A DNA stretch of 64,000 nucleotides from contig CAVYGQ010000001.1 in assembly GCA_963768175.1 (NCBI GenBank), positions 766,305 to 830,304 on the forward strand, given 5' to 3'. The stretch's first letter is position 1; each line of letters begins with the position of its first letter. Origin of the DNA: Candidatus Doudnabacteria bacterium (GTDB lineage: Bacteria; Patescibacteriota; Doudnabacteria; UBA920). This document shows positions 15,348 to 54,291 of this stretch, piece by piece. The translations under genes were made by a program, and so were the position numbers. A model generated the notes under the pieces. The model saw nothing but the letters and a program-made list of their open reading frames with translations, was not told where the DNA came from and did no database searches.

Positions 15348-15370
15348 ATATTGTACCTATGTCTTCTCCT

Positions 15371-15408
15371 ATTCACTATTCACTATTCACTATTGCCTAT
15401 TCGCTATT
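15371..15408. repeat. heptamer tandem repeat (TATTCAC)n abutting the rpoB stop codon
   Basis: attcactattcactattcactattgcctattcgctatt. Confidence 0.75.
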
Positions 15409-19321: not shown

Positions 19322-19669
19322 CTATGCCGTACCGCTTTGCTTAATATAATCGCTAATCCGCTGCTGGTCTTCCCTCGCTTGCTCACCTTTAAAATACAGT
19401 TCAATAAAGACTATTTCTTTCTTGTTGGGGTGATAGGCATAAATTATCCTTAGTGTATTTTTCTTCAAAAATCGGCAAAAAAATCGCGCTTTGGCAATTT
19501 TTAACTCGCTGTTTTGGAATAAAACAGCAAAATGCTTGTCAGTTCCAAGCGGCACTTCTTCCAAAACTTTCTTGAACACTTCCAAATCTTCGGGCAGGGA
19601 AAGGTATTTTTTGCCCAGCCGTTTGCAATTTTTGGTAAATTCAGGTAATTCATTAAAGTTCATCGTCAT
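19322..19669 (-). CDS. RelE/ParE-superfamily (HigB-like) toxin; start assumed at the internal ATG (MTMNFNEL), overlapping the upstream antitoxin stop
   Basis: C-terminal RIIYAYHPNKKEIVFIELYFKGE pattern typical of RelE/ParE; 17-nt overlap with the HTH gene. Confidence 0.5.
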   Translation of the reverse strand: MTMNFNELPEFTKNCKRLGKKYLSLPEDLEVFKKVLEEVPLGTDKHFAVLFQNSELKIAKARFFCRFLKKNTLRIIYAYHPNKKEIVFIELYFKGEQAREDQQRISDYIKQSGTA

Positions 19670-20429
19670 AATTGCGGACCGAATGTTCCTGATCACGGTA
19701 AAAAACACTTTCGTAATCTATTGCTTCTCCGGGTTTATGAACCATCCAAGGTATATCTGAATGGGAATATTTGCTTAATTCCGAAGCGGATTTATCGGAA
19801 AGCCGGTTTAACACCTCGTCAATATGTGCCAATTCCCGCGCGGACAATACTGTTAAATCCGCCTCTTCTCTCGGTAAGTATTTTTTTTGCTCATACTGAA
19901 AATAGCTGCTTTTAACTTTTTCCAGTTCATTTTGCGCTTCCATTTCTTTAACCAAACTCGAAAATTCCCTGGGAGTGGGTCCAAAATGATTGCGGATATA
20001 AGTCGCGCCGGTTAATTGTTCCTCAAACTTTTCATAAAAATCAAAATCAACAAAATATAACAACTTATAAAGTGCAGTTTCACCTATGTTGGGTTTGGCG
20101 CCGACTTTCCCCAAAATATATAACAAAACACTTTTAAATTTGTCAACGTTCAACTTGGGGACATTAATTCTAACTTCATTTTCAATTTCCGATTTTTTTG
20201 CCCTATTATCTAATTTTACCTTATGCTCGATAGGCGAAATTTGCGCCAAAAAATCGTCTAAAGGCAAACCAAAAAGCTCCGCGAGTTTTTGAGCTTCAGA
20301 TACTGTTAGCTCCCTTTCCCCTTTTTCTATTTGCATATAAGTGGGGCGAGAGACATTAATTTTTTGGGACACAAAATTCTGGGAAAATTTCGCATTTTCC
20401 CTCAATTTTTTGAGATATAGTCCAGTCAT
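19653..20429 (-). CDS. XRE-family HTH antitoxin-like protein with a C-terminal roughly 170-aa domain (possibly DUF4065/Panacea-type)
   Basis: N-terminal LYLKKLRENAKFSQNFVSQKINVSRPTYMQIEKGERELTVSEAQKLAELFGL HTH_XRE; first gene of a two-gene operon behind a consensus promoter. Confidence 0.6.
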   Translation of the reverse strand: MTGLYLKKLRENAKFSQNFVSQKINVSRPTYMQIEKGERELTVSEAQKLAELFGLPLDDFLAQISPIEHKVKLDNRAKKSEIENEVRINVPKLNVDKFKSVLLYILGKVGAKPNIGETALYKLLYFVDFDFYEKFEEQLTGATYIRNHFGPTPREFSSLVKEMEAQNELEKVKSSYFQYEQKKYLPREEADLTVLSARELAHIDEVLNRLSDKSASELSKYSHSDIPWMVHKPGEAIDYESVFYRDQEHSVRNYDDEL

Positions 20430-26957: not shown

Positions 26958-27873
26958 ATGGCCGCTAAAATCAACAACAACTATTCAACCAAACCGTCGC
27001 CAACTGTCATTGGGCCATCTTTAGTTTACCAGTCCGGGAGTTCTCCCTGGGGACTGGAGGCTTTTTATGAAGGCTACCGATTGGTGTTTTCGGCAGACTT
27101 TGGCCGAGTTCGGAAGACAGCAAAAAAATGGAAAAAATTTTTTAGGTCTTTTGTAACCGCGCCGAATAAAAACCCCGGCAGCATTATTCACAACGTTGAT
27201 TTATATCACCTGTTCAGCAAGAGCGCCGAGCATGCCTGGGACAACTCATATATTTTGGCGCAAAAACGCAAAAGCCGGCTTGGAGTGGAAGATATTTTTT
27301 TGGCCCTGCTGGAGAGAGCCCTCGGTAAAAAACCTCCTGTCCCGCATTAAGGTAGACAGCCTGCAGGCCAAAAGATTTATAAATAATTATTTAAAACTTA
27401 CCCTGTCGCTAAACGATGACACGGTAAAAAAAATTCCTTTTGAGGCGTTCGCTCTGGCGGCAAAACTTCATAACCATAAAGTCGGCAGCCTAATGCTGTT
27501 GGGTGGGCTGCTTAAAGCCACTCCTCATGACAATATTTTGCAGGCGGTTTTTACCAACATCGGCCTAACCGCCGCCAAACTTGAGTTGTTTGCCGTCTGG
27601 CATTTGGACTTAGATTACGAATTTCCGCCCAACTCCACCAGCGGCAAACTGCTGTTTTGCCTAAGACAAGCCACGGGCTTGGAAGAACATTTTGGCTATT
27701 TTTTTGAACTGCCGGCTATTGAGGCCGCGGTGGATTTAAGCCAAGGGCAAACCCTAAAAGATCTACAGCATTTAAAAGCCTTGCAGCTATTGGTAAAGGC
27801 CGGCCTTTTAGCCCAGAACAAAAAGACAAAAATAATTTCTGAAAATTTGGTCAAACAGGCGGCACGAAAATAA
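26958..27873 (+). pseudogene. Clp N-terminal (Clp_N) repeat-domain protein split over two frames by a 1-nt shift in an A6 run (27327-27332). This may be a frameshifted gene, a sequencing error or programmed frameshifting
   Basis: ORF 26958..27350 ends ...GVEDIFLALLERALGKK and ORF 27196..27873 continues NLLSRIKVDSLQAKRF... (Clp_N repeats); deleting one A restores a single frame. Confidence 0.45.
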
Positions 27874-33462: not shown

Positions 33463-34518
33463 TTATTTCCTATTGATCAAGTTTACTATTAGCTTTACCA
33501 TGACATTTTTCTGTACCGATTTGCTTTCGGCTATCAATAAAGCCAGGGCTACTAAAGCGGTATCGTTGACTTTGCGTTCGCCCTTTTTGTTGTTGAGACA
33601 ATTATTTTCTATCAAGAACAGCAAAAACAGCAAACAGCCAATGCGCTTGTTGCCGTCCACAAACGGATGGTCCTTAATGGCAAAATATAAAAGGTGCGCA
33701 GCCTTTTCTTCCAAGCTCTGATACAACTCTTTGCCGGCGTAAGTTTGGTAAATGCTCCCCAAAACGGCTTCCAGCTTGCCCCCTACTTCCTGGCCGAACA
33801 GGGAGCTGACTTCTTTTTTGACGGCAAGGCGCTGTTTGAACCGCGCGATGGTTTTTTGGATTTCCCCGTGGTCCAGCGGCCGCGCGGTTTTTTTGCTGAC
33901 ATCGGTTATCCCTAATTTACCTTCGTCGTATTCATGAAGCACCGTCCACGTGTTGGCGTAGTCTACAATAATGTTCAAAAATTCCTTTTCATACCCTTCC
34001 GCGCGCCGCGCTTCTATCACGTTTTGGAACAACTTTACCGTCTGCTGGAGTTCCTTAAGCTGGCTGTTATGTTCCTGCTTTAACTGGTCCAGCCGGTTTT
34101 TATTGACCGCGTAACCCTGGAGCAAATAATCGCGCAACCTTTGCGTTGCCCAAATGCGGAATTGCGTGCCGCGTTTGGAATTAACCCGATATCCAACCGA
34201 AATAATCATATCTAAATTATAATAAGTTGTTGGCTTATCTAAGCCAATTCCAGTAAAACTGGAATTGGCTTGTTTAAGAGAAGTTTCGGCCTGATTAAGT
34301 TCATTTTCTCTATAAATATTATTGATGTGCAAAGAAATAGTTCTGAAGTCTTTCTTAAACAATTCTGACATTTGAGCTTGTGTAAGCCAAACAGTTTGTC
34401 CTTCCATTCTTACCCTTAATTCCGGCCCTTCCGGGGCTTTATAAATAATAATTTCACCTTTTCTTGTTTCTTCTGACATAAAACTCCTTTTGTTCAAGCC
34501 AATATGTACTTTCTGCAT
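33463..34518 (-). CDS. Fic/Doc-family protein (RhuM-like N-terminal domain plus Fic domain) with the variant motif HPFVDGNKRIG
   Basis: Fic motif HPFx(D/E)GN(G/K)R at DHPFVDGNKRIGCLL. Confidence 0.7.
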   Translation of the reverse strand: MQKVHIGLNKRSFMSEETRKGEIIIYKAPEGPELRVRMEGQTVWLTQAQMSELFKKDFRTISLHINNIYRENELNQAETSLKQANSSFTGIGLDKPTTYYNLDMIISVGYRVNSKRGTQFRIWATQRLRDYLLQGYAVNKNRLDQLKQEHNSQLKELQQTVKLFQNVIEARRAEGYEKEFLNIIVDYANTWTVLHEYDEGKLGITDVSKKTARPLDHGEIQKTIARFKQRLAVKKEVSSLFGQEVGGKLEAVLGSIYQTYAGKELYQSLEEKAAHLLYFAIKDHPFVDGNKRIGCLLFLLFLIENNCLNNKKGERKVNDTALVALALLIAESKSVQKNVMVKLIVNLINRK

Positions 34519-36864: not shown

Positions 36865-39651
36865 CTAAATCTCTAATTTTTTCATCTCTCCCCAATTATC
36901 CCCGACTTTGGCTTCCACCTGTACGGGAACGGAAAGTTGAATAGCGCTTTCCATTAAGGGAACAAGCTTTTTTGCCCAATATTCCACTTTGCCTTCGGCC
37001 ACTTCAAACACTAGTTCATCGTGCACCTGCAAGAGCATTCGACAATCGGTTGTATGTTGTAAGTTGTATGTTGTAAGTTCTTTGTGGATATTAACCATGG
37101 CGACTTTGATTACATCGGCGGCCAGGGACTGTATGGGAAAATTCACGGCCGCGCGCTCGGCTGCGGCGCGGACAAAAAATTGGGACGACTTTATTTCCGG
37201 GAACTTGCGGATGCGCCCAAGCTCATTACGCACAAAGCCTTCTTCATTAACCTGCAATTTTATCTGCTCTATATATTCTTCCACTTTCGGGTAAGCCGCA
37301 AAATATTTGGCGATAAACTCCTTGGCCTCGGCGCGGCTAACCTGCCCAATGCGCGATGAAAGCCCAAAACTGGACAGCCCGTATAAAATCCCAAAGTTAA
37401 TAGTCTTGGCATCTCGCCGCATATCGGGAGTGACTTCGCCGGCCTTCACGCCGAAAATGCTCACGGCGGTATTGGTATGGATATCTTCCCCGTTCTTGAA
37501 TACGCGGAGCATATTTTGGTCTTTGGCCAAATGCGCCACAATGCGCAGTTCAATTTGGCTGTAATCTATGGATAACAGCTTAAAGCCTTTTTCGGCCACA
37601 AAGGCCTGGCGGATTCTGCTTCCCAACCCCTGCCCGCGAATTGGAATGTTCTGTAAATTCGGATCCGTGGAGGACAGTCTTCCTGTAGCCGCAATGGTCT
37701 GGTTATAGCTGGTATGAATCCTCCCTGTTTTTTTATTGACCAATTCCGGCAACGCCAACAAATAAGTTGACTGCAGTTTGGCCAATTCGCGGTATTCCAT
37801 TATTTTAGCTATAACCGGATGCTGGCCAAGCATTTTTTCCAGCTCCCCGGCCGCGGTGGAAAGGCCGGTCTTGGTCTTGCGGTTGTTTATGGCTTCCAGC
37901 TTTAACTTATCAAACAATACCTCCTTCATCTGCTTGGGGGAATTGAGGTTAAACTCCCGACCGGCTAATTTGTAAATTTTGCTTTCCAAATCTTTAATGT
38001 CTATTTCCGCTTCCGCAGAAAGCCGATTTAAAAATTTGGCGTCCAGCTTAATGCCGTTTAGCTCCATATTGGCCAAAACTTCCACCAGCGGCATTTCAAT
38101 ATCGTAAAAAACTTTTTCCAAACCCTCTTGTTTTATTTGCGGCTCAAATAATTGCTTAAGCCGCAGCGTCATATCCACGTCTTCACAACAATACCAAGAA
38201 ACTTTTTCCGCCGGCACCCGGTCCATGGTAATCTGGGTTTTCCCTTTGCCAATTAAATCCTCAATCGGCTGCGTCTGGTAGCCCAGCTCATTAAATGCCA
38301 GCGCCTCCAAATTATGCTGGCGCGTGCCAGCGTTGAGCAAATACGAGGCAATCATGGTATCAAAATAAATAGGGTTAAGAGCTAAGTTATTTGTGCTAAG
38401 TATCTGTAAATCATACTTAATATTGTGGCCGATTTTTTTGATGTGTTGATTTTCAAAAACCTTTTTTAATTCACCCGATGCCAAAACCAAATCCGCCGTG
38501 ACATAATAAGCCTGCCCCGGTTTTACACAAAAGCCAACGCCCACCAATTTGGCATCAGTGGGGTTTAAGCTGGTGGTTTCTGTGTCTATAACAAGTTCTT
38601 TGGCGGATGATAAAATTTTTATAACTTTGTCCAGCTTATCTTGCGTGTCAATTAAATTATATTCCTGCTTAAATTTAGCTTCTACCTTAGCCGGCAGAGG
38701 TATCCCCTCTGTAGCAGAGGGGACACCTCTGCCTTCCACGCCCGCTAACTGCCCACCTTTTGGCAATTTATTAATAAGCGACCGAAACTCCAATTCCTGG
38801 AACAGCCTAACTGTACTTTGTAAATGCGCCGCGTCCAAATCATACTTAAGAATATTAATGTCCAGCGGCACGTTGCGGTCAATTACCGACAATTGGTAAG
38901 ACATGCGCGCTTGGTCTTCCTGTGCTTTGAGCAGTCCCAAAATCCGCGGTTTAATTTTATTGCCGGTTTTTTCTTTCTTTATGGCCTCGTATAATCCGTT
39001 CAGCGATTTAAATTTCTTAACCAGCTCTTCCGCGGTCTTTTCGCCAATGCCTTTGACTCCAGGAATGTTGTCGCTGGGGTCGCCGCGCAGGGCTTTATAG
39101 TCTACCATTTGGTCGGGGTTCAGCCCATAACGCGCGCGTACGGCTTTCTGGTCGTAAACCACCACGTCGGTAATGCCTTTGCGCATAGTGTAAACTTTTA
39201 TTACCTGGTTCACCAGCTGCAAAGTGTCCAAATCGCCAGTGACAATTATGACTTCGGCTTCCGGATTTTTTTTATGCAAGCTCAAGGCCAAAGTCCCCAG
39301 ACAATCGTCCGCCTCAAACCCCTGTTTTTCAAAAATCGGGATATTTAGCGCGCCTACGACTTGTTTGACGCGAGGGATTTGGTCATAAAGTTCCTGGTCG
39401 GCCTTAACCCGTGTTGCTTTGTATTCCTTATACTGCTCATGCCTAAAGGTGGGTCCGGCTAAATCAAACGTGCAGGCAATGTGCGTGGGTTTAATGTCGG
39501 CAATAGCCTTTAACAATATCAAAGTAAACCCGTAAACGGCGTTGGTCTGCTCGCCGCTTTTGGTGTTTAAAACCGGGATGGCGTGGTAGCCGCGGTGGAT
39601 TAGCGCATTACCGTCTATTAGCATGTAGCGTTCGGTTTTGGGGAAAGTCAT
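36865..39651 (-). CDS. polA: DNA polymerase I (5'-3' exonuclease, 3'-5' exonuclease-like and polymerase domains); start set at MTFPKTERYMLIDGN
   Basis: Pol A motifs ...RRDAKTINFGILYG... and QVHDELVFEV; carries in-frame repeat insertions at 37031 and 38704. Confidence 0.95.
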   Translation of the reverse strand: MTFPKTERYMLIDGNALIHRGYHAIPVLNTKSGEQTNAVYGFTLILLKAIADIKPTHIACTFDLAGPTFRHEQYKEYKATRVKADQELYDQIPRVKQVVGALNIPIFEKQGFEADDCLGTLALSLHKKNPEAEVIIVTGDLDTLQLVNQVIKVYTMRKGITDVVVYDQKAVRARYGLNPDQMVDYKALRGDPSDNIPGVKGIGEKTAEELVKKFKSLNGLYEAIKKEKTGNKIKPRILGLLKAQEDQARMSYQLSVIDRNVPLDINILKYDLDAAHLQSTVRLFQELEFRSLINKLPKGGQLAGVEGRGVPSATEGIPLPAKVEAKFKQEYNLIDTQDKLDKVIKILSSAKELVIDTETTSLNPTDAKLVGVGFCVKPGQAYYVTADLVLASGELKKVFENQHIKKIGHNIKYDLQILSTNNLALNPIYFDTMIASYLLNAGTRQHNLEALAFNELGYQTQPIEDLIGKGKTQITMDRVPAEKVSWYCCEDVDMTLRLKQLFEPQIKQEGLEKVFYDIEMPLVEVLANMELNGIKLDAKFLNRLSAEAEIDIKDLESKIYKLAGREFNLNSPKQMKEVLFDKLKLEAINNRKTKTGLSTAAGELEKMLGQHPVIAKIMEYRELAKLQSTYLLALPELVNKKTGRIHTSYNQTIAATGRLSSTDPNLQNIPIRGQGLGSRIRQAFVAEKGFKLLSIDYSQIELRIVAHLAKDQNMLRVFKNGEDIHTNTAVSIFGVKAGEVTPDMRRDAKTINFGILYGLSSFGLSSRIGQVSRAEAKEFIAKYFAAYPKVEEYIEQIKLQVNEEGFVRNELGRIRKFPEIKSSQFFVRAAAERAAVNFPIQSLAADVIKVAMVNIHKELTTYNLQHTTDCRMLLQVHDELVFEVAEGKVEYWAKKLVPLMESAIQLSVPVQVEAKVGDNWGEMKKLEI
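37031..37060. repeat. heptamer tandem repeat (TTGTATG/TTGTAAG) x4 inside the polA coding sequence (encodes LTTYNLQHTT)
   Basis: ttgtatgttgtaagttgtatgttgtaagtt. Confidence 0.75.
38704..38733. repeat. C/G palindromic element (cccctctg-tagc-agagggg) in-frame in polA (encodes GVEGRGVPSATEGIPLP)
   Basis: 7-bp perfect hairpin, GC-rich relative to polA. Confidence 0.55.
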
Positions 39652-39700
39652 ATATACATTATAGATGATATTACCCGCCGGACAAAACATCCGCCATAGC

Positions 39701-39732
39701 AAAACCCCGCCCTTTGCGAAGGGCGGGGTTGC
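39701..39732 (-). terminator. intrinsic terminator after paralog A (aaccccgccc-tttgcgaa-gggcggggtt plus U-tract on the minus strand)
   Basis: 10-bp GC stem; tttt follows on the transcribed strand. Confidence 0.65.
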
Positions 39733-39756: not shown

Positions 39757-42700
39757 TTATTTAGCCGATGAAAGCGATAAAACCGGGAACTGATAATTAA
39801 AAACTTCATCCGGATTTATCCAATAAAAATCTATATCATTAAATACCAGATTGCCGTAAGAACCGACAGGGTTGGCCTTTAACAAAGCTATATTAGCCGG
39901 ATCCCCGGTATTGTATTCCGTACCGTTAAATACATTTTGCTTAAGCCAATTATATTTTTGCTGCAAATACTGGTTGCCGGTTGCCAGTTGGCGAAAAACT
40001 TTGCCCTGCAAAACATACAAGGAAAAAGATTCGGCGAAGTCTTCATAGGGGGTATAATGGCTGGCATCCAGTTTATCTGATGTCCAACCGGTACCGTAAC
40101 TACTCACAAACTCGCTGGCCTTGGCCGAGTCTCCGCGCAACAAGGGATAGAAAGTCCAGCCGGAAGCGGTTAAAGGTTTGGTGGTGTCAAAACTAATGGA
40201 ATAAAAACCCATGGTATCAATTACCCCCCTGGATCCATAAGCAGAATCCGGCGGATAAAGGTTCTTGTCAAGGTAGTGTGCATACTCATGCATTACTGTA
40301 TTCAAAGCGTAGAAGTCGTCATGAATATCCGCGGTGTGGTTCATGGGGACGCAGCTGTCGCCCATTTCCGGATAATACACTTCCAAACATAATTTATAGT
40401 TTCCGTTTGTAATATCAAAGCCAGAAGGACCGACCTGCCCTGTTAACTGATAATAAGCATACCATTTAAAATTAGCTTCATTCCAAGTAGCCAATTTTGA
40501 GGGCAAGGCGCGGAAAGCTTTATCCAACAAGGCGGCCACGTGTTCCTTAGAAGGCGCATTTTGCGGGGCGTCGCCCATATGGGCTGGATACAAAGGAAAG
40601 TCAGCGGCAGCAATCGTATCTGCCTGCTCCACAGGAGCCAATTGGCTGTCAACTTTTAATAGTACGTCTTTAGAAATAATATCCGAGGTTGGGAAACTAT
40701 TTAACTTTTCATATTTATTCAAAAGAAAGTGCGCAACGCCGTTGGCGTTGTCAGTGGAACGGCTTGGCCCGTAACCGAGTTGCCGTATGGCCATCAAAAA
40801 ACGGTAAGCAAAAGGGCTTGTGCTGGCCGACGGAGCCCCTGCGGCCATCCCAAACGAAGTAACATCATAATTAGCCAGCGTCCCCGCCGCAATCGCCTGC
40901 GCCGTTGTATCGTCTTTCAAAAATTTACTTTTTAAGATAGAAGTATTTGAACCTCCGGTTACCGTAACCGTAAAACTCTGTGTTGCCGTGTTCCCTGAAC
41001 TGTCGCTGGCGGTAATGCTAATAGGATAGGTTCCGGCCGTAGTTGGGGTGCCGTATAGGAATATTTCATTTAACACAATAACCATCGGACAGGCTGTTTT
41101 CAAATCCTGGTTATTACAAGGAGCATAGCCAAAGTTCATACCCGGTACGCTGCCGGTTTCGGTAAAAGTATACCGGCCCATTAAGTCACCGGATGTGGGA
41201 GCGCCAGGGCCAGCATAAAAACCGATTTTTCCATAAGTGCCTTGGGTAAAATTTAACGAACCGCTAGAGGTGATGGTGATGACAGGCGAAGAGCCGGAAT
41301 TAACTATATTTATAGTCTGTCCGGCAATCGGAACCATTGGTCCAATAACTGCGCCATTTGTAGCCCAAGTACCGGTTACAGTATTTAAGATAACCAAATT
41401 TTGGTTACTTACACCTGAATTACTGTTAGTTACCCCCGACGCAACATCCGCATAAACATCAAGAATAGCCAAACTCCCAGCGGGAATAGCCATAGATCCA
41501 GTAAAAGTATAGAGGCCATTGCTTGCCACTACTGGTTGGGTAGTACCGAATTGTATATAACTTACTATATCATAATTAACGGTCTGTACTTTCATCAGGA
41601 GATTCCGGAAATTATTACTTATGGTATTTCGTGTTGCCGTCAGGGTTATGGAATTAATATTTGCGGTGCCGGCAGTATTGTTTTTAAGCTGAAAAGAAGC
41701 GATCCTTTGGTTTACTCCTCCCGAGGAAACAGAAATTGGCGAAACCACTACACTGTTTAAGCTTACCGACAAAGCTGCATTGCTTGACTGATTTACCACT
41801 ATAACTGTGAAATTCTGCGTTGCCGTATTGCCTAATTGATCCTTTACGGTAATGCTTATTGGATAAGTCCCGGCCACGGTGGGTGTGCCGTCCAAAAATA
41901 CATAATTAGGAAAAGCCGGTGGGTCCACACAGATGGTTAAACCAGGATGGTTGCAAGGACTGGCCTCAAAAACCATCCCCGGCACGTTGCCGGTTTCCGT
42001 AAAGCTATACATAGAATACACCCCGTTTGAAGACAACGGCTGGGCAACAAAATCGATTTTCCCATAGGTGCCTTGGATAAGATTTAGCGAATCGGTAGTG
42101 GTAATAGTTATGGAAGGCGGACTGCTACTTCCGGGAACGCTCGATAAATCCGCCAGGCAAGCGCTTTGTGAACTAAAAGTCTTTAAGCCTTGATACATAT
42201 AAGCGCCGCAGAACTGCTTTTGGGAAGAACAGGTAGTGTTGGTGGAGTCGTGCCACCACAAGGTATTGCAGATGGTGCCGCTACCGGAAGATGTAGAAGG
42301 CACGGCTATAGTAGTAAAGAACTTCCTTAGCAGCAGGGTGCCGGCTTTGGCGGGTTGGGTGTAGAACTCCACGCGGTAGGCGGTAGCGGGGGCTAAAGTG
42401 GCGGTCTGGGTGCCGGTTTGGCTGGCCGGGTCAACGGCCAAAAGGACTTTGGCTTTATTGGCTTTTAAGGTCACATACAAGGAACCTTGGGCATTGCGGG
42501 TTCTGCTCCAATTAAACTGGTAAGTCCACTGGTTGGCGGTGCTGTCGTAGGACAGCGGGGTAGCGGTAACCTTTAAAGAAGTGTTGGTGGCAGAGGTAAT
42601 GTAAATGGTAGGATAAGTGGCAACCCCTAAGATCTGGGGGGAAGAGGCGGTTTGGAGCTCCTGCATAGTTAAGGCTCTAGCCTTTAAGATAGGGCTAAAG

Positions 42701-42879
42701 GAGTAATTATCCGGGCTCCCGGCTACGCAGACCACGGCCGCAGCCACGGACACGGCCGCAAACAGCACAAAGGTCAAGGCAATAGCCGAGCTTACGTTGG
42801 CATGAAGCACGCACGACAAAAACGAGGGCTTTGTGGTGGCCACTTTGGCCGGAGCAACACACTTGGTATCCTTATGCAT
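39757..42879 (-). CDS. paralog A: secreted modular protein with a signal anchor, a conserved roughly 135-aa N-module, two He_PIG-like Ig domains and a C-terminal HEXXH zinc-metalloprotease domain
   Basis: N-terminal IALTFVLFAAVSVAAAVV; shared module PDNYSFSPILKARALTMQELQ...LLRKFFTT; Ig-like YGTPTTAGTYPISITASDSSGNTATQSFTVTV; NTVMHEYAHYL (HEXXH); the track start 42906 is a TTG, the first ATG is MHKDTKC. Confidence 0.7.
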   Translation of the reverse strand: MHKDTKCVAPAKVATTKPSFLSCVLHANVSSAIALTFVLFAAVSVAAAVVCVAGSPDNYSFSPILKARALTMQELQTASSPQILGVATYPTIYITSATNTSLKVTATPLSYDSTANQWTYQFNWSRTRNAQGSLYVTLKANKAKVLLAVDPASQTGTQTATLAPATAYRVEFYTQPAKAGTLLLRKFFTTIAVPSTSSGSGTICNTLWWHDSTNTTCSSQKQFCGAYMYQGLKTFSSQSACLADLSSVPGSSSPPSITITTTDSLNLIQGTYGKIDFVAQPLSSNGVYSMYSFTETGNVPGMVFEASPCNHPGLTICVDPPAFPNYVFLDGTPTVAGTYPISITVKDQLGNTATQNFTVIVVNQSSNAALSVSLNSVVVSPISVSSGGVNQRIASFQLKNNTAGTANINSITLTATRNTISNNFRNLLMKVQTVNYDIVSYIQFGTTQPVVASNGLYTFTGSMAIPAGSLAILDVYADVASGVTNSNSGVSNQNLVILNTVTGTWATNGAVIGPMVPIAGQTINIVNSGSSPVITITSSGSLNFTQGTYGKIGFYAGPGAPTSGDLMGRYTFTETGSVPGMNFGYAPCNNQDLKTACPMVIVLNEIFLYGTPTTAGTYPISITASDSSGNTATQSFTVTVTGGSNTSILKSKFLKDDTTAQAIAAGTLANYDVTSFGMAAGAPSASTSPFAYRFLMAIRQLGYGPSRSTDNANGVAHFLLNKYEKLNSFPTSDIISKDVLLKVDSQLAPVEQADTIAAADFPLYPAHMGDAPQNAPSKEHVAALLDKAFRALPSKLATWNEANFKWYAYYQLTGQVGPSGFDITNGNYKLCLEVYYPEMGDSCVPMNHTADIHDDFYALNTVMHEYAHYLDKNLYPPDSAYGSRGVIDTMGFYSISFDTTKPLTASGWTFYPLLRGDSAKASEFVSSYGTGWTSDKLDASHYTPYEDFAESFSLYVLQGKVFRQLATGNQYLQQKYNWLKQNVFNGTEYNTGDPANIALLKANPVGSYGNLVFNDIDFYWINPDEVFNYQFPVLSLSSAK

Positions 42880-42949
42880 ATATGTTAGTTCTTGCCCCCA
42901 CACCAAAACGCATTATTAAGCGTTCTAATTTAAAGGCAGTTATTTAATT
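42316..42949. repeat. 634-bp segment (5' leader plus signal peptide plus N-module of paralog A) nearly identical to 44343..44976 of paralog B
   Basis: Direct comparison finds only a few SNPs clustered in the signal-peptide codons plus one 1-nt indel. Confidence 0.85.
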
Positions 42950-43005
42950 GTTTTTACTTAATGCTAATTTTTTGCTTTTGTGGTTGCCCACTAAGAATTT
43001 AAAGG

Positions 43006-44906
43006 CTATTGCAGAGGATTATTTGCACAGTTTGCCCAAGTGCTATTTAATCGGTTAATTACATAGTTATAATTTTGCTGGTTAGCTCCGCTTGCCATGG
43101 TAAATTTATCGGCTGTTAAATTTGCCGTGCCTCCCTGCGTAACGGTGAAATCGGCGTAGGCGATATCTTGGCCGGTGTTATTATCGTGGTACGTAATCCT
43201 GTAACCCCCGAGAGGCAGATTAAATGTTTCTAGATGACGATACGCGCTAACCAAATTAACAGCAACATTACTCTCTCCATTGTTAGAAACCTGAAGAAAC
43301 CTCATTTGGGGCAAAATCGTAACATAATTGAATTTAGTGTAACTTGCAGCTAGCCCGGCGCTTACGGGAATAGAAGGAGGCTGGGACGAGCTGATAACAT
43401 AATTTATTTGATTGTTAACAACCACATAATACAGATCTTTGCCATCGGTTCTGGTTATATTAAACATTAAAGGGTCGCCGGCAAGCGAATCGCTGGCATA
43501 TAGATTGCCGTTGGTCGGGACATTGGCAATCGTTACGGTTCCGAATACCGAAGAAGCATTCGCAGTGTCAAATCCCTTATAAAGTTCTGTCCCAAAATAA
43601 TCCCCAGGCTGTAATGAAACAGCTGAATACGCGCTTTGGTTATCCAATTGCCTGAAATATGAATATACCATAGGGGGGAAATCCACGGTAACCCCAACGG
43701 GCTTGCCTTGGGCGGCGCCGAACGTGCTATTAAATACAAGCCATTGGCCGTTAATATAAGCTTGGGTGTTTGCGTGTGCTGCGCCCTGAACAGGCATGGC
43801 TATTCTTGCGGGGATGCCTGCCAGCCTGAACATGGCCGTGGTTATTACTGCGGCATCAAGGCATATCCCTGTTTTTTCGTTATAAATGTCAATTACGCTT
43901 TGCAGGTTATTCGCTGGAGTTAAGCCCGCAGGGCTACTAGAGCTAGTATCGAGTGCAAAATCGTAAGGCCTGGATTGCTCCACCCAACTGGCAATGGCAA
44001 CCGCTTTGCTCATATCGTCATTTTTTCCGGCAATTAATGTATCTACCTGATTTATTATGCCTGAATCATGCATCCAGTCGCTGTCTATTAATGGATAAAT
44101 GTTCGGCCCGAGATATTCCGCATTGTGCGGGTCATCAGTATCAGTAAAGTTGATATTGCAACTTACCAAGGAGTTTAAAGGTGGGTTGACAGTAATCGGA
44201 GGCGGGCTGCCGCTACCCGGACACGGGAGAAGCTGGCAGTTCGGGCCGGTATAGCCCACGGTGGTTTTGCCGTCCGGACACAGGACGGTAATATTAGGAC
44301 ACATTGTAATGAGGGATGGTTTAGCAGAAGAACTAAGGGTGGTAAAGAACTTCCTTAGCAGCAGGGTGCCGGCTGTGGCGGGTTGGGTGTAGAACTCCAC
44401 GCGGTAGGCGGTAGCGGGGGCTAAAGTGGCGGTCTGGGTGCCGGTTTGGCTGGCCGGGTCAACGGCCAAAAGGACTTTGGCTTTATTGGCTTTTAAGGTC
44501 ACATACAAGGAACCTTGGGCATTGCGGGTTCTGCTCCAATTAAACTGGTAAGTCCACTGGTTGGCGGTGCTGTCGTAGGACAGCGGGGTAGCGGTAACCT
44601 TTAAAGAAGTGTTGGTGGCAGAGGTAACGTAAATGGTAGGATAAGTGGCAACCCCTAAGATCTGGGGGGAAGAGGCGGTTTGGAGCTCCTGCATAGTTAA
44701 GGCTCTAGCCTTTAAGATAGGGCTAAAGGAGTAATTATCCGGCTCCCGGCTACGCAGACCACGGCCGCAGCCACGGACACGGCCGCAAACAGCACAAAGG
44801 TCAAGGCAATAACGGAGCTTATGTTGGCATGAAGGACCGACGACAAAAGCGAGGGCTTTGCGGTGGCCTCTTTTGCCGGAGCAATACACTTGGTATCCTT
44901 ATGCAT
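43006..44906 (-). CDS. paralog B: the same N-module fused to a transglutaminase-like cysteine-protease domain. In this sequence the gene is disrupted by a 1-nt deletion (GGG to GG near 44736) that separates the signal peptide (frame of ORF 44712..44933) from the body (ORF 43006..44889)
   Basis: Transglutaminase-core-like KTGICLDAAVITTAMFRLAGIPARIA ... GAAHANTQAYINGQWLVF; A reads ttatccgggctcccggc where B reads ttatccggctcccggc. Confidence 0.6.
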
Positions 44907-44976
44907 ATATGTTAGTTCTTGCCCCCACACCAAAACGCATTATTAAGCGTTCTAATTTAAAGGCAGTTATTTAATT
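44343..44976. repeat. second copy of the 634-bp near-identical segment (paralog B)
   Basis: See 42316..42949. Confidence 0.85.
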
Positions 44977-45082
44977 TTATTTTGGTTTCTCTCACCCCCC
45001 ATACTTAATTTTGGTGTGGGGGTGAATTTCAAAGGTTTCGCACTAATTTTGGCGCGAACCTAAATTTAAAACTTGTGACTAT

Positions 45083-45111
45083 ATTATAGCATAAATCAAT
45101 ACTTTCCGCAA
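45083..45111 (-). promoter_or_regulatory. promoter TTGCGG-17-TATAAT driving paralogs B and A; identical core upstream of paralog C
   Basis: Reverse complement reads ttgcggaaagtattgatttatgctataat. Confidence 0.55.
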
Positions 45112-45161
45112 GAATAAAAAATTAAATCCGCGTCGGCACTTTTGACTATTAGCCTTAGCCT

Positions 45162-45202
45162 GCAAAACGAAACCCCGCCCTGTCTAATGACGGAGCGGGG
45201 TT
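45162..45202 (-). terminator. intrinsic terminator after paralog C
   Basis: aaccccgc...gcggggtt stem; tcgttttgc on the minus strand. Confidence 0.6.
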
Positions 45203-45215: not shown

Positions 45216-48200
45216 CTAATGGCTTGCAACCCCGATGACTAAATCACTTTGGCCGGAACCATATTTATTGGTTGCGGCGTAGTTTAAACGATAGGTATAC
45301 CCGGCCTGGCAAGGCTGGATTGCAAACGGACCGCTCACTCCGTTGCTTGAATTCCCTCCCGAAGGAACAGGGCTCCAGTTGTTTTGATTCAAAGAAGGAG
45401 AGTAAAGTGTACCCATTTCAAACGGAAGCATAGCAATCACAGAAGGATCGGTTATATCCAATCCATACTTAACCGCCGGAAGATTACATCCGTCCTGAAA
45501 AACAGGGAGGCCTTTGGAATTAAGGAAGCCGTCGTAATCAAAGTAGTAAGAGGTACCTCCGGTGGAAGTCCACTTGTACCAGATATTGGTCCCGGGTGAA
45601 ACCGCAAGCGTGGAATACCACGGACCGTTTGCCCCGGCAGTGGAAGCCTGCAAGCTCGCTATAGGCGTTGCTTGCGAGGCGGGAACCACTGTCCCCGCGG
45701 GAGCGGCGTAAGCGTCAAAACTCTGCTGAGCCACCACCTGGCCTGAATATGTAAGTCCGCTGTTGGCTACAGATATCATACAATTAGGGACCTTTATCTT
45801 CATTATCATGCCCACGTACTGGTCGGAATAACACGTTTGTATGCCGCTACCTTTATTATAATAATTGTCCAAAATTATACCTGCAGGGAAGAGGACTCCG
45901 TCGCTGCGGCGGATAAAAGCTGTCGCGTCCTGACCCGCAGCTTCGCCAACAAAGTGGTCCAGTTCTAAGGTCGCTGGCGCGCTGCCTGCCTGTGTGGCCA
46001 TGAAATTAACTATTCGCAATGCTTCGTTTCCGCCTTCTTGTGTAGCTGCATACGGATATTGTCCCTGCCAGCCATTAGTCGTTTGGACAACATGGAACCA
46101 GTTCATAAATCCTGATACCGTGCCCGGTCCATATGTGCATTTATTCAGGCTGGGATTTGAGGCTTGGCTTAAGGAACCAATGAAACCGGAATAATAAGGA
46201 TTGAAGGATTCATAAAGATCTTTAGTCGTACCAGCGTAATTGTTAGTTTGAAGCACAATATTAGGCGCGCCGCTTGAGGTGGTCTGCCCACCGCCATTGC
46301 CTTCACAATGACCGGTAGGGTTAGCCGAAGAAGGACTATTCCCGCCGTAAACCGCAAGTTTTAGAGTAACGGTCGTGCCGCCTGTGGTATAGGTTAAGGC
46401 GTAAATATACCCTCCTTGGCAAGCAAGAATCGGGTAAGGCCCAGCATAACCGCTTGCGCCTGAATAGGTAAAGGGCTGTCCGCCAACCGTATAACCGGTA
46501 GTGTTACCGTTCCACGGGGTCCAGGTATTATTCGGTGTATTGCCGCAACCGTCTTTAGTAACGGTCTTACCGTTAATGTCGGTTATTGACGCGAGAGCAA
46601 AGCTGTAGTCAGAATCAGCACCGCCGCTCCAGCTATAAGTTATTTGATCGCCTCCCTTGCCAGTGGCATCACCTGCCTGGACGGAAAGGTTATCACTGTA
46701 GCTGTAGCCATTGGTTGTTTTTGCCGCAAAAGTAACTGTCGGTGTCGGATTAACTGCCGGATTAGTAGCAAGGGAAAAATTGCACGAACTAATATTTGCA
46801 TTGGGGTTAGTGCCTATGTCTGGGGAAGGGGCAGCCGAGGTGCTGGGAACCGTGCAGATAATGGTGTCGTCTACAGGCTTGCCAACAGGGTTTGCGGCAA
46901 GAAAGGTGGAAAGCGGGGCTTGGGTAAGGTCTACTGCTACCGGGGCATTAAGGTTGCCACCTTCGGACTGGTAAAGCGCTGCTCCTGCCGCATTTAAAGC
47001 CAGAGGGTAAGAGGCGTTTCCACTATTTATGCAAAGGCCTGCGTATTTACCCGTGCCAATAACCCAACTTACCTCTGTATTCTTAAGAAGAGGGCTAAAA
47101 GCTTGACTGACCACAGTAGACGCAGATACCGGAGCAAAATAATCATAGTTGGGTGCATCAATAGTACCGGTGGAATTGGGACATACTACAGTACCAGGAT
47201 TTTTATGCGCTGAAAGCGGCGGGCCATAAAAGAAAGTGTATTCGTTGTAGGTCACTTCTGGAATAAAATAAACACCCACATTAGCATTATAATCAGCAGG
47301 AGACTGGGATGTATACAAAGCAAGACTTCCCATGCTTACGGTTCCGTTGGGCCGCATATCATAGCCTTGCCTGCCGCTGAAATTCACTAACATTTGGCTG
47401 GGAACTAAGGTCAAATTAGCCGGTAGCTGGACTCCGGCGGGAATCAGGCTTTGGTAAGAAACCTTACTTACCTTTTGCTGGATAGCGTTCAAAAACGCCA
47501 GCTCATCTTGAGTCATATTAACAGCTCCGCTCGGTGTTAACGGTCTAATGTCTTCATACTCATATGTACTAGGGTTGTATGACTTTAAACTAACAGGAGT
47601 CGGGGTCGCTTGGGCAAGATCCCACCTGGATGACGCCCATTCTCCCGGAATAGGCATAGTCATGGCATCAGTACGATTCAAAGGCAGGCCGTCAAAAAAC
47701 CACGATAAGTAACCGCCGCTGCTATTAAAGTAATATTTCCCATCAGTTCCCTTATAATACAAATAACCATAATGTTCGCATGGTAAATTAGTCTGGGCTT
47801 CAAGCTTTTTTTCATCCGCAGGAAGAGTCCATCCATGGCCTGCGGTGGTATAAGTTGGCGACTGCCTGCTAAAGTACCAGTTTGTGCCGGCAATCTGGAC
47901 TATATCTGTGTCCGAAACATTCGCCAGCGGATCGTTGGTGCAGGTATAAGTTGAAGGAGGGATGGAAGGCGAACCGCCGCTGCCGGAAACAGCAGAAGAA
48001 CTTAGGGTGGTAAAGAACTTTCTTAGCAGTAAGTTACCGCCTTGGGCAGGCTGGGTGTAGAACTCTACGCGGTAGGCGGTAGAGGGAGCCAAGGTAACAA
48101 TCTGGGTACCGGTCTGGCTGGCTGGGTCAACGGTTAGTAAGACCTGGGTCTTGTCGGATTTTAGGGTGACATACAAAGAGCCTTGGGCATTGCGGGTTCT

Positions 48201-48527
48201 CTTCCAGTATATCTGGTAAGTCCACTGGTTGGCGGTGCTGTCGTAGGACAGCGGGGTAACAGTAACCAGTAAGGAAAGGTTGGTGGCAGAGGTAATGGTA
48301 ACGGTGGGGTAAGTAGTAATTCCCAAGACTTGGGGAGAAGAAGCGGCCTGGAGTTCGTCCATGGTTAAGGCTTTGGCCTTTAGGGCGGAGCCGGAAAAAC
48401 CGCTGCCGGAGGCGGTTGCAAATAAAACAAAAGCCAGCGCAATAGCTGAGCTTATTTTGGCATTGAACACCGACGACAAAAACGAAGGCCGTTTCGCCGC
48501 AGAAACACACCTAGTATTCTGATTCAT
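45216..48527 (-). CDS. paralog C: diverged copy of the N-module (about 60% identity) fused to a roughly 950-aa Gly/Thr/Ser-rich beta-repeat (adhesin-like) region
   Basis: ALKAKALTMDELQAASSPQVLG...LLRKFFTTLSSSA; repeated CQ.GY.Y.L.Y beta-strand motifs; hydrophobic N-terminal segment. Confidence 0.65.
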   Translation of the reverse strand: MNQNTRCVSAAKRPSFLSSVFNAKISSAIALAFVLFATASGSGFSGSALKAKALTMDELQAASSPQVLGITTYPTVTITSATNLSLLVTVTPLSYDSTANQWTYQIYWKRTRNAQGSLYVTLKSDKTQVLLTVDPASQTGTQIVTLAPSTAYRVEFYTQPAQGGNLLLRKFFTTLSSSAVSGSGGSPSIPPSTYTCTNDPLANVSDTDIVQIAGTNWYFSRQSPTYTTAGHGWTLPADEKKLEAQTNLPCEHYGYLYYKGTDGKYYFNSSGGYLSWFFDGLPLNRTDAMTMPIPGEWASSRWDLAQATPTPVSLKSYNPSTYEYEDIRPLTPSGAVNMTQDELAFLNAIQQKVSKVSYQSLIPAGVQLPANLTLVPSQMLVNFSGRQGYDMRPNGTVSMGSLALYTSQSPADYNANVGVYFIPEVTYNEYTFFYGPPLSAHKNPGTVVCPNSTGTIDAPNYDYFAPVSASTVVSQAFSPLLKNTEVSWVIGTGKYAGLCINSGNASYPLALNAAGAALYQSEGGNLNAPVAVDLTQAPLSTFLAANPVGKPVDDTIICTVPSTSAAPSPDIGTNPNANISSCNFSLATNPAVNPTPTVTFAAKTTNGYSYSDNLSVQAGDATGKGGDQITYSWSGGADSDYSFALASITDINGKTVTKDGCGNTPNNTWTPWNGNTTGYTVGGQPFTYSGASGYAGPYPILACQGGYIYALTYTTGGTTVTLKLAVYGGNSPSSANPTGHCEGNGGGQTTSSGAPNIVLQTNNYAGTTKDLYESFNPYYSGFIGSLSQASNPSLNKCTYGPGTVSGFMNWFHVVQTTNGWQGQYPYAATQEGGNEALRIVNFMATQAGSAPATLELDHFVGEAAGQDATAFIRRSDGVLFPAGIILDNYYNKGSGIQTCYSDQYVGMIMKIKVPNCMISVANSGLTYSGQVVAQQSFDAYAAPAGTVVPASQATPIASLQASTAGANGPWYSTLAVSPGTNIWYKWTSTGGTSYYFDYDGFLNSKGLPVFQDGCNLPAVKYGLDITDPSVIAMLPFEMGTLYSPSLNQNNWSPVPSGGNSSNGVSGPFAIQPCQAGYTYRLNYAATNKYGSGQSDLVIGVASH

Positions 48528-48766
48528 ATGTGTTATTTCTTAATGGTAATCCCTTCCCTCCTATTATATATTAAAGAAGAAAAGATGACCATTATTTAAT
48601 TGTTTTTCTTGCCCCGTTAGAAACCTCACAATTATTTTGGAAGTGGTTTCTAAAGAAGTAAGTTTGTCGTTTTTATTTCTTTTATTCACCCTAATTCCTA
48701 ACGGGGTGAGTTTCAAGGAGTCCGCACTAATTTTGATGCAAACTTAAGTTTAAAATTTGTGTAAAT

Positions 48767-48795
48767 ATTATAGCATAAAATAAGATTTTCCGCAA
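48767..48795 (-). promoter_or_regulatory. promoter TTGCGG-17-TATAAT for paralog C, followed by a roughly 235-nt leader sharing a conserved 70-nt 5' block with the paralog B leader
   Basis: Reverse complement reads ttgcggaaaatcttattttatgctataat; conserved cgcactaattttg block and a covarying hairpin. Confidence 0.55.
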
Positions 48796-48798
48796 GGA

Positions 48799-48854: not shown

Positions 48855-50510
48855 TTACCCCTCCCCGGCCACGCGGAACACCTCTTCAACATCCGTCATT
48901 CCCTGCAAAGCTTTAAGCAGGCCGTCCTGAACCATGGTTATCATACCCTGGCCTACGGCCACTTTTTTAAACTCGGCCATAGAAGAATTTTCTTTTAATA
49001 TTAACGCCTGAATAGCTTCGGTGTTTTCCAAAACTTCATAAATGCCGACGCGGCCGTTGTAGCCTAAAGTGTGGCACTGGGGGCAGCCAGTAGAATGATA
49101 AAAAATCAGCTCCTTAGTCAGTTCCACTTTGGCAACTTTCGGGATTTGTTTTAAAATGTATTGGATTTTCTCCAAAACCGTGGGAGAAAGCTTGGCCGGC
49201 TTTTTACAATTTTGGCACAACCGGCGAACCAGGCGTTGGGCTAATACGACCGAAAGCGCCGGCGCCGCCACAAAAGGTTTTATGCCCATGTTCAGCAAGC
49301 GCGGAATGGCGCCGGCGGCATCATTGGTATGCAGCGTGGAAAAAACCAAGTGGCCCGTTAGCGCCGCCTGCAGCGCCGTCTCTGCGGTTTCCTGGTCGCG
49401 GATTTCGCCGACCATAACAATATCCGGATCCTGCCGTAGAATGGCGCGCAGACCTTTGGCAAAATCAAAATCGTGATTATGGTCAATCGGGGTTTGTACT
49501 ATGCCCTCCAGCTTGTATTCCACGGGGTCTTCCAAAGTAATTATTTTTACCCCAGGCTTATTCAATTCGTTTAAAAACGCATAAAGCGAGGTGGTTTTGC
49601 CGCTGCCAGTAGGGCCGGTGGTTATAACCATGCCATTGGGTTTTTGCAGCTGCCTTTCCACCACTTCCAAAGCTTGGGCGGAAAAACCCAAATCTTTTAA
49701 CTTTAACGTGCTGGCTCCCGTGCCCAAAAGGCGCATAACAATTTCCTCACCGTAGGCGGAAGGCAATACCGACACGCGCACGTCTATGGGTTTTTGCAAA
49801 TAATAAAAAGTAATACGCCCGTCCTGCGGCAGGTCTTCCACGTTGAGTTTCAGTTTGGATAAAATTTTTATTCTGGTAGTAATGGAGCGCTGGAGGTCTT
49901 TGCTTAAATGCAGCATGTCCTGCAGCACACCGTCTACGCGGAACCGCAACTTAAAAAAATGCTCCTCCGGCTCCAAATGGATGTCCGAAGATTTATAAAA
50001 CATGCCGGCGCCAAAAATAATTTCCAAAAGCTGGCTGGCATTTTTTTTCTTTTGCTCTGGCTCCTGTTGCATCAGCTTAAGCATCTCACCATAGTCTTCC
50101 TCCTTTTCCACGCGCAAAACTTCCTCGGTAACCGCTTTAGGGCGCAAAACTTTGCTGTAAAATTTCAGCGTCTGCTCCAGTCCCTTTTTGGAAATAAAAT
50201 ATAACGTGACTTTATTTTTTGCGGACAACTCCTTTATTTTTTCCAAAAGCAGCGGATGTTTGGGCTGTGTGGTACCAATGCGCAAATCGGTTAAATCCTT
50301 ATAAAACGGAACCGCGCACATTTCCCGGGCTTCGGCTTCCGTAAACATGCCCAAAACGCTTAAATCCACGGGAAAATTGTGCAAATCTATGTACGGCAAC
50401 CCTAAAGAACCGGCCTGGGCCTGGGCTTCTTCTTCCTGCATTTTACGGTTTAGCTCATCCAGGCTCCCCTGCAATTCCTGTGGAGTGCTGGATAAAAATT
50501 TATTGGCCAT
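48855..50510 (-). CDS. pilB: type IV pilus / type II secretion assembly ATPase (PilB/GspE family); start set at MANKFL (the track start is a TTG)
   Basis: Walker A TGPTGSGKTTSLYA; Asp box; His box; C-terminal tetracysteine CPQCHTLGYNGR. Confidence 0.9.
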   Translation of the reverse strand: MANKFLSSTPQELQGSLDELNRKMQEEEAQAQAGSLGLPYIDLHNFPVDLSVLGMFTEAEAREMCAVPFYKDLTDLRIGTTQPKHPLLLEKIKELSAKNKVTLYFISKKGLEQTLKFYSKVLRPKAVTEEVLRVEKEEDYGEMLKLMQQEPEQKKKNASQLLEIIFGAGMFYKSSDIHLEPEEHFFKLRFRVDGVLQDMLHLSKDLQRSITTRIKILSKLKLNVEDLPQDGRITFYYLQKPIDVRVSVLPSAYGEEIVMRLLGTGASTLKLKDLGFSAQALEVVERQLQKPNGMVITTGPTGSGKTTSLYAFLNELNKPGVKIITLEDPVEYKLEGIVQTPIDHNHDFDFAKGLRAILRQDPDIVMVGEIRDQETAETALQAALTGHLVFSTLHTNDAAGAIPRLLNMGIKPFVAAPALSVVLAQRLVRRLCQNCKKPAKLSPTVLEKIQYILKQIPKVAKVELTKELIFYHSTGCPQCHTLGYNGRVGIYEVLENTEAIQALILKENSSMAEFKKVAVGQGMITMVQDGLLKALQGMTDVEEVFRVAGEG

Positions 50511-50535
50511 TGTTGGATTGAACAAGAATTAAAAG

Positions 50536-53812: not shown

Positions 53813-54028
53813 ATGCGAGCCATTATAAACATTTCCGTGCCCCAAGAAGTCAAAAAAGAAATGGAAACCGCGGTCAAACAGGGCGGTTTTGCCACCAAAA
53901 GTGAATTTGTGAGGGACTTGATGCGGCTATGGAAACAAGAACAAATACTCAAAGAGTTACGACAGAGCCAACAGGAATTCGCCAGGGGAAAAGGCAAGCT
54001 TTTAAAATCTTTAAAGGACTTAAGATAG
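53813..54028 (+). CDS. ribbon-helix-helix antitoxin, ParD/CopG family
   Basis: INISVPQEVKKEMETAVKQGGFATKSEFVRDLMRLWKQEQ matches the ParD RHH pattern (...SEvvReaLRlle...). Confidence 0.7.
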   Translation: MRAIINISVPQEVKKEMETAVKQGGFATKSEFVRDLMRLWKQEQILKELRQSQQEFARGKGKLLKSLKDLR

Positions 54029-54033
54029 CCTTA

Positions 54034-54291
54034 ATGAAGATATTTTACTCGCCAAAATTCAGGCGCCAATACAAAAAACTGCCCCGCGAAATTCAAACAC
54101 TTGCGGAAAAAAGAGAACAAATATTCCGTAAAAACCCTTTCCACCCAACCTTAAAAACCCACAAGCTCCAAGGCAATCTGGAAAAATTTTGGGCGTTTTC
54201 CATAGACTACAAATACCGGATTATCTTTGAATTCATGCCCGACAAAACCGTCCACTTCCATTCCGTCGGCGACCATGATATTTACGATTAA
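54034..54291 (+). CDS. RelE/ParE-family toxin (85 aa) partnered with the upstream RHH antitoxin
   Basis: MKIFYSPKFRRQYKKLP...KYRIIFEFMPDKTVHFHSVGDHDIYD; start 6 nt after the antitoxin stop; the track ORF 53929..54291 is an upstream read-through extension. Confidence 0.7.
   Translation: MKIFYSPKFRRQYKKLPREIQTLAEKREQIFRKNPFHPTLKTHKLQGNLEKFWAFSIDYKYRIIFEFMPDKTVHFHSVGDHDIYD

Follow-up and report, generated by a model that had tools for sequence, protein, structure and literature searches.

We analyzed a 64,000-nt stretch of the genome of a Candidatus Doudnabacteria bacterium (assembly GCA_963768175.1, contig CAVYGQ010000001.1, positions 766,305 to 830,304; hereafter, the window), focusing on three tandem paralogs—genes A, B, and C—that lie between pilB and polA. 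Genes A and B share a near-identical 5′ tract in which B lacks a single base.

Genes between pilB and polA

Read along the minus strand, the order is pilB, C, B, A, and polA (coordinates are those of the window):

48855-50525, minus strand: pilB, type IV pilus ATPase (T2SSE); upstream edge of the variable locus
45216-48527, minus strand: gene C, third paralog, 1103 aa; leader, signal peptide, and module as in A and B
43006-44906, minus strand: gene B, 633 aa with the missing base restored; signal peptide, N-terminal module (N-module), and transglutaminase-like core
39757-42879, minus strand: gene A, 1040 aa; signal peptide, N-module, Cys-rich linker, immunoglobulin (Ig) repeats, and C-terminal domain
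36865-39702, minus strand: polA; downstream edge of the variable locus

Downstream of the module, the bodies of the three proteins are unrelated. The module of A is followed by a Cys-rich linker, two He_PIG-type Ig repeats, and a C-terminal domain with an HEYAH motif of the HExxH form; neither this C-terminal domain nor the body of C had a match in PDB sequences, NCBIfam, or Pfam. The body of B is transglutaminase-like (PF01841, 47.4 bits against a gathering score of 23, E = 2.6e-12) and retains the Cys (GICLD) and His (AAHANTQAY) of the catalytic triad. Its third triad position is Asn (VFNSTF, ~43830-43850), compared with Asp (FDSTF) in the four closest body homologs. The Asn may mark a Cys-His-Asn variant of the papain-like type or, alternatively, decay; an Asn as third triad residue is compatible with an active papain-like Cys-His-Asn enzyme. 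The architecture of B, in which the module precedes a transglutaminase-like core, is a singleton, and the homologs of its body bear other N-termini. The modules of C and A are 80% identical at both the nucleotide and the amino acid level.

The region past pilB is hypervariable between close relatives (L005, L007, and L008), with different module-family genes in each. In the closest pilB relatives (89 to 92% identity), the surrounding synteny is kept, with DHH and pilB genes on one side and polA, DUF212, and RhuM/Fic genes on the other. Between pilB and polA, one relative encodes proteins of 273 and 456 aa, and another encodes a PDDEXK protein and proteins of 337, 1241, and 1668 aa. The module-like N-termini of the relatives at this locus are only 26 to 31% identical, and neither orthologs of A or B nor orthologs of the A, B, or C bodies were found at the pilB-polA locus of the relatives fetched. 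No conspecific assembly was found; module scans of genome and metagenome contigs gave three and one distant loci, respectively. The locus past pilB is a fast-turnover site for module-family genes. A comparison of orthologous loci had been proposed in the original prediction as a check on gene B, but it does not settle the state of B, because no B ortholog occurs in the closest relatives.

A near-identical tract and a missing base

The tract shared by A and B and the features within it are as follows:

42314-42949, minus strand: tract copy A (local and three-way alignment); 70-nt 5′ leader, signal peptide, and beta-sandwich N-module
44342-44976, minus strand: tract copy B (local and three-way alignment), 1 nt shorter than that of A
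42785-42858 in A and 44812-44885 in B, minus strand: substitution-rich patch, 11 substitutions in 74 bp
42713-42715, minus strand: GGG run in A (coding strand CCC), frame intact (…AGS PDNYSF…)
44741-44742, minus strand: GG run in B (coding strand CC), one base fewer than A

In the local alignment, the two copies differ by 13 substitutions and one 1-nt indel in ~635 columns (98% identity). The alignment stops sharply at 42314/42949 and 44342/44976, outside of which the sequence is unalignable, and the 70-nt leader is 100% identical between A (42880-42949) and B (44907-44976). The substitutions are far from evenly spread. Eleven fall within the 74-bp patch, a clustering that was matched in 0 of 200,000 simulations (analytic bound, 4e-7). 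The patch corresponds to codons 8 to 32, where seven codons carry an amino acid change and three a synonymous one, and it covers the cytoplasmic n-region plus the start of the hydrophobic core. The remaining two substitutions are both nonsynonymous and lie in the module (42600, I/V; 42347, K/T).

On the plus strand, the indel context reads TTATCCGGGCTCCCGGC in A (42707-42723) and TTATCCGGCTCCCGGC in B (44735-44750). The signal-peptide frame of B opens at the ATG at 44906 and stops at 44712-44714, 10 codons past the deletion, leaving gene B split into two open reading frames (ORFs; 44712-44906 and 43006-44889). Putting one base back yields an uninterrupted 633-aa protein. Relative to its intact paralog A, the frame of B is disrupted, as in a pseudogene.

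Most of this agrees with the original prediction. Its tract limits lie within 2 nt of those from the local alignment, its ORFs at 44712..44933 and 43006..44889 are both present, and its accounts of the single missing G, the identical leader, the signal peptide of B being out of frame with the body, and the transglutaminase-like nature of that body were all borne out. Its statement that substitutions are confined to signal-peptide codons applies to 11 of the 13 and fails for the two in the module.

Residual assembly error or null allele

The frameshift in B is present in the assembly, and a residual consensus or assembly error is the explanation toward which we lean, though only slightly and from close to an even balance. 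It is the sole lesion in the 1.9-kb ORF: no further stops or frameshifts were found, and 574 codons are open downstream. The 1-nt deletion is read here as a consensus indel left uncorrected or, alternatively, as a null allele of very recent origin.

A second frameshift in the window bears on this choice. ORFs 26958-27350 and 27196-27873 on the plus strand are halves of one ~304-aa Clp_N-domain protein with 79 homologs, the closest of which are full-length (80% identity and 100% coverage for the best). The lesion lies at ~27312-27318, where homologs read ALL(K/E)EPSVKN and the window reads CTG-GAGA-GAGCCC, with one extra base in a GAGAGAG context. Because the gene is conserved and the genome is small (~0.95 Mb) and streamlined, a real knockout of it is unlikely, and this second frameshift in a conserved gene therefore points to assembly indels. 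A search of the window for further broken genes, based on same-strand overlapping open frames and Pfam, found only the Clp_N-domain gene.

The window appears to come from a long-read assembly, since the 635-bp repeat is spanned inside a 949,077-bp contig and the short-read contigs of three relatives (L009, L010, and L011) end 66 to 380 nt past pilB. That short-read contigs end there suggests repeats or strain heterogeneity. Single-base indels are the typical residual error of long reads (PMC9262707). A comparable lesion may exist elsewhere: the tail of P0008, a family member from another genome, reads LAPPPPTAWNFTPSLPKAVTYY, which equals the +1 frame of the module. Judged from the protein, a second NCBI/ENA assembly would thus carry another 1-nt deletion, located in a C-rich run, and we count this toward artifact.

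Several observations weigh against an artifact. A run that goes from G3 to G2 is short for an error of the homopolymer type, and reads cross-mapping from A should give B an additional G instead of taking one away. When C serves as the outgroup, the two module substitutions, each of them nonsynonymous, both arose on the B lineage, and B has Asn in place of the triad Asp, as would fit a truly dead gene under relaxed constraint. The two broken genes also amount to 3.6% of ~55, a share that is seen for real pseudogenes as well.

The strongest competing explanation, which we consider somewhat less probable than an assembly error but still a serious contender, is that the deletion is real and that B is a freshly inactivated gene—a null allele or nascent pseudogene—in the population. 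The signal peptide would then be translated to the stop after 10 out-of-frame codons, and the transglutaminase-like body would not be exported. The frameshift stands in the deposited assembly, whose public annotation calls the 627-aa body ORF (P0001) as the gene, and the changes on the B lineage (the two module substitutions and the triad Asn) are those expected under relaxed constraint. Also in favor are the singleton architecture of B, the fast turnover of accessory surface-protein genes in variable loci, and the wholly different gene set of the relatives at this locus. Set against this are the single lesion with its long open frame downstream, the second frameshift in a widely conserved gene, and the compatibility of the Asn with an active enzyme. 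If the frameshift is real, polarity may lower the expression of the downstream gene A. In annotation, B is best marked as frameshifted, and a conserved gene of the window has another probable indel.

Evidence for gene conversion between A and B

The original prediction read the patchwork of identical and diverged segments as recent gene conversion, and on sequence comparison, there is indeed good support for recent gene conversion, mosaic in pattern, between the two genes. In the module, the number of synonymous substitutions per synonymous site (dS) is 0.022 between A and B, compared with 0.69 between A and C and 0.63 between B and C. The ratio of nonsynonymous to synonymous substitution (dN/dS) between the A and C modules is 0.17, indicating purifying selection on the module. 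In the first 37 codons, which hold the diverged N-terminal patch, dS between A and B rises to 0.146; the patch is 85% identical and is set between two segments of ~100% identity. Beyond the sharp edges of the tract, the flanks resemble C. Upstream, the promoter and leader of B are homologous to those of C in the three-way alignment, and the ~15 nt directly upstream of the tract edge in A resemble C, not B. Downstream of the module, B and C have the linker TTLSSSA in common, and A diverges right after FFT.

We propose that RecA-type intragenomic conversion, acting between modules that were already homologous, recently homogenized the 5′-most ~635 bp of A and B, which would leave the mosaic of an identical leader, an older 85%-identical n-region patch, and an identical module. 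Gene C stood outside the recent homogenization, because its module is closer to that of P0008 (95% amino acid identity) than to those of A and B (80%). A similar arrangement occurs in the metagenome-assembled genome (MAG) CAZFQP01, which has three paralogs with near-identical promoters, 5′ untranslated regions (UTRs), and signal peptides.

Could the near-identity instead reflect a recent one-step segmental duplication or domain fusion, in which the 5′ end of B was pasted onto an unrelated gene? The unrelated bodies of A and B and the sharp tract edges would suit such an event, which we nonetheless regard as improbable. A one-step paste predicts uniform divergence, whereas an 85%-identical patch flanked by segments of ~100% identity is seen, and the ~15 nt upstream of the tract edge in A are C-like rather than B-like. 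In addition, P0090, an unrelated metagenome protein, shares the A-type architecture, with the module followed by a CxTLWW(H/Y)DS... Cys-rich domain; gene A therefore probably already had a module of its own. Together, the C-like flanks and the architecture of P0090 favor conversion of preexisting modules over a one-off paste.

A 46-nt run (42517-42562 in A) is identical in all three paralogs despite the A-C dS of 0.69 (P ~0.002 by codon shuffling), which hints at an older micro-conversion tract or at constraint at the nucleotide level. The clustered substitutions were also considered as a target of a diversity-generating retroelement. This candidate was rejected: the 11 substitutions involve all four bases with no adenine bias, and no reverse transcriptase domain was found in the nearby ORFs scanned.

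Phase variation and recoding

The original prediction offered three meanings for the lesion in B: a fresh pseudogene, a phase-variable gene, or a sequencing error. Our results point both ways on the first and the last, and they speak against the second. A slippage switch was taken to need a homopolymer of ~7 or more or several units of a 2- to 5-nt repeat. Tandem Repeats Finder detected no simple-sequence repeat at the indel site, where the run is only G2/G3. The only nearby repeat is an in-frame 12-nt unit in 1.9 copies, ~10 nt from the indel and identical in A and B. The shift site reads GGG AGC CGG ATA, and a slippery heptamer of the form X XXY YYZ is absent from it. Phase variation and recoding are thus unsupported by the sequence, and it is improbable that anything programmed lies behind the frameshift. 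Because B carries an isolated lesion without a repeat tract or slippery site, its deletion shows no sign of being a regulatory device; we read this as ordinary biology and not a genetic switch. Taken as a whole, the explanation that combines an exported-protein family, conversion between A and B, and a lone lesion that is not a device seems to us about evenly poised between right and wrong.

We consider it very unlikely that B is nonetheless switched ON and OFF, by slippage of the G run or by reciprocal conversion with A, as in the bab genes of Helicobacter pylori. The lesion does lie in the 5′ coding region, within the signal peptide of an exported protein, and this region is the classic site of contingency switches (PMC5483490). 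An in-frame donor copy that is 99.5% identical around the site lies 2 kb away, and the P0008 tail, read as another 1-nt deletion, could be taken as a second such case. However, the G3/G2 run without a simple-sequence repeat offers little to slip on, and gene C and the family members of other genomes lack the stretch at the indel. Expression of B despite the shift is less credible still: an in-frame ATG (...ALTMQEL) 19 nt past the premature TAA and three residues after the predicted signal-peptidase site might allow reinitiation, but the leaderless product would lack the signal peptide carried by every family member, and programmed −1 ribosomal frameshifting is opposed by a site that is not slippery and by A, which encodes the same segment in one frame.

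The N-terminal module family

Genes A, B, and C appear to form a tandem set within a small family of exported proteins that is specific to Patescibacteria. Homology of pilB and the Clp_N-domain gene also assigns the organism to Patescibacteria; hits with names come from Candidatus Doudnabacteria and unclassified Patescibacteria. The unit they share consists of a long basic K/R-rich n-region, a hydrophobic core of 20 to 25 aa, an A-x-A|LT(M/V)(Q/D)EL motif, and the module. By inspection of alignments, the motif is kept across family members as (A/T/V)-x-A|LT(M/V/Y)(D/Q)E; the A-x-A|LT part is predicted, also by inspection, to be a signal-peptidase I site at the end of a Sec-type signal peptide.

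The module is ~125 aa long, ends in LLLRKFFTT, and occurs exactly three times in the window. No Pfam model matches it. Its AlphaFold2 model is an all-beta sandwich of moderate confidence (predicted local distance difference test [pLDDT] score of 64.6), for which Foldseek returned only generic, weak, and nonsignificant PDB matches of the Ig/FN3-like type. When 1.84 billion representative proteins were searched with a profile, 87 clusters of module carriers were recovered. The module almost always occupies residues ~10 to 180 of proteins of 400 to 1400 aa and is C-terminal in a few. The other domains of the carriers include TIG, F5/8 type C, malectin, GH43, GH99, M10 peptidase, transglutaminase, beta-helix, PKD, and FN3. 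Given this diversity of partner domains behind the module, the unit would seem to serve in export or presentation of a range of extracellular enzymes and binding proteins. The N-terminal beta-sandwich module, which is undescribed and lacks a Pfam entry, marks ~87 clusters of large exported Patescibacteria proteins.

P0008 (681 aa, encoded on a 192,667-bp NCBI/ENA contig) has a C-like leader, and a body of ~490 aa is inserted between its ALTMDELQAASSPQVLG peptide and the beta-sandwich.

Promoter, leader, and terminator signals

Genes B and C are preceded by a common promoter-like element and 5′-UTR stem-loop, and terminator-like hairpins bound the cluster:

48767-48796, minus strand: promoter-like element upstream of C, the same as that of B
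48719-48744, minus strand: stem-loop of C
45171-45202, minus strand: GC-rich hairpin and T-run after C, terminator-like
45083-45112, minus strand: promoter-like element of B; TTGCGG, 17-nt spacer, TGnTATAAT (TGCTATAAT)
45035-45060, minus strand: 5′-UTR stem-loop of B; 9 bp, loop CAAAATTA
39703-39730, minus strand: terminator-like hairpin after A
L005 9742-9822, L008 13356-13436, and L007 17650-17730: promoter/stem-loop element in relatives

The element core, which comprises the extended −10 box and the sequence just downstream within an element of ~90 nt, has two matches in the window, compared with zero expected. Five of the nine stem-loop pairs covary across five loci. The element precedes module-family genes in four genomes. 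In three relatives, its copies ahead of family members are 74 to 82% identical at the nucleotide level, compared with only 26 to 31% identity for the proteins. The promoter and the covarying stem-loop have thus been kept at the nucleotide level while the coding sequences diverged to ~28% identity. Rfam returned nothing in the leader/UTR region.

No such promoter/stem-loop element lies upstream of gene A, and the 126 nt that separate the B stop codon from the A start codon (43006 to 42879) contain neither a consensus promoter nor a terminator-like hairpin. A terminator-like hairpin also follows pilB. Because A lacks a promoter of its own and no terminator separates it from B, the two probably form one transcript, or operon, as deduced from the absence of consensus signals.

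The 70-nt leader of A and B folds into a long hairpin just 5′ of the start codon (42896-42945 and 44923-44972, minus strand). The whole 5′-UTR of B has a folding z-score of −4.3, and a 14-nt segment of B (45013-45026) is perfectly complementary to 44923-44936, making an alternative pairing possible.

Comparison with known systems

The arrangement resembles babA, babB, and babC of H. pylori, surface-protein paralogs with near-identical 5′ regions and divergent functional regions. In the bab genes, RecA-dependent intragenomic conversion makes chimeras, and frameshifts in the 5′ signal region turn expression off; the frameshift is driven by a CT-dinucleotide repeat, with 8 repeats ON and 7 or 9 OFF (PMC5483490, PMC4552749, and PMC3444412). 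Genes A and B have no such tract, only G3 versus G2. The bab bodies are, moreover, homologous and their loci dispersed, whereas A and B are tandem genes with unrelated bodies.

A second parallel is with Mycoplasma, host-associated bacteria with reduced genomes, in which the vlp (M. hyorhinis) and vsp (M. bovis) genes are tandem and combine a conserved 5′ leader/signal-peptide cassette with divergent mature regions. The A/B/C cluster likewise comprises tandem surface-protein genes with a shared leader/signal cassette and a divergent remainder. Switching in Mycoplasma relies on poly(A) tracts in promoters or on site-specific inversion, and the mature regions consist of repetitive lipoproteins. 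By comparison, A and B also share a folded domain of ~125 aa, enzyme or adhesin domains make up their variable parts, and a switch element was not found.

Recombination keeps intrachromosomal copies of tufA/tufB in Salmonella, and of rRNA operons, near-identical in mosaic tracts with sharp edges, and the near-identity of A and B has the same form. In those cases, however, the whole gene is homogenized and the function is the same; in A and B, only the 5′ cassette is homogenized, and the functions differ. Polymorphic toxins, Rhs proteins, and CdiA recombine a conserved N-terminal export region with variable C-terminal domains, giving rise to variable loci, and A, B, and C similarly join a conserved N-terminal presentation region to highly variable C-terminal domains. 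Unlike in Rhs/CdiA systems, no toxin/immunity pairs, Rhs/YD or filamentous hemagglutinin repeats, or orphan C-terminal cassettes were seen, and the C-terminal domains of the module family are glycan binding, hydrolase, or protease-like.

The locus adds one more instance of phenomena already known: a 5′ cassette evolving in concert among surface-protein paralogs, plus a lone frameshift. Conversion between paralogs and a single frameshift are both routine; the module family, the variable locus, and the promoter/stem-loop element, which emerged as by-products, are of more interest. It is a far-fetched idea that a recombination-competent "presentation cassette" is made up of the conserved promoter, the 5′-UTR stem-loop, the signal peptide, and the module. 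If that were so, an episymbiont-type bacterium would shuffle, silence, and reactivate surface enzymes at a hot spot past pilB, and the frameshift in B would be an OFF state repairable by conversion from A, for which no repeat tract is needed.

Other features of the window

A 1.3-kb ORF-free gap (14072-15403) lies between rpoB (15404-18925) and rpoC (10115-14071). It contains direct repeats of 63 nt (86% identity, 498 nt apart) and 28 nt (96% identity, 662 nt apart), and one repeat holds a hairpin with compensatory changes (GGCATC...GATGCC versus GACATC...GATGTC). The gap may be a structured RNA or a gene remnant; Rfam searches found nothing across the window and no meaningful match in this gap.

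Toxin-antitoxin and defense-type genes are scattered among the housekeeping genes of the window:

19322-20429, minus strand: helix-turn-helix and SocA/Panacea antitoxin, with a small ORF downstream
53929-54291, plus strand: RelE/YafQ-like toxin
33463-34518, minus strand: RhuM-Fic protein, the gene for which is syntenic in relative L005

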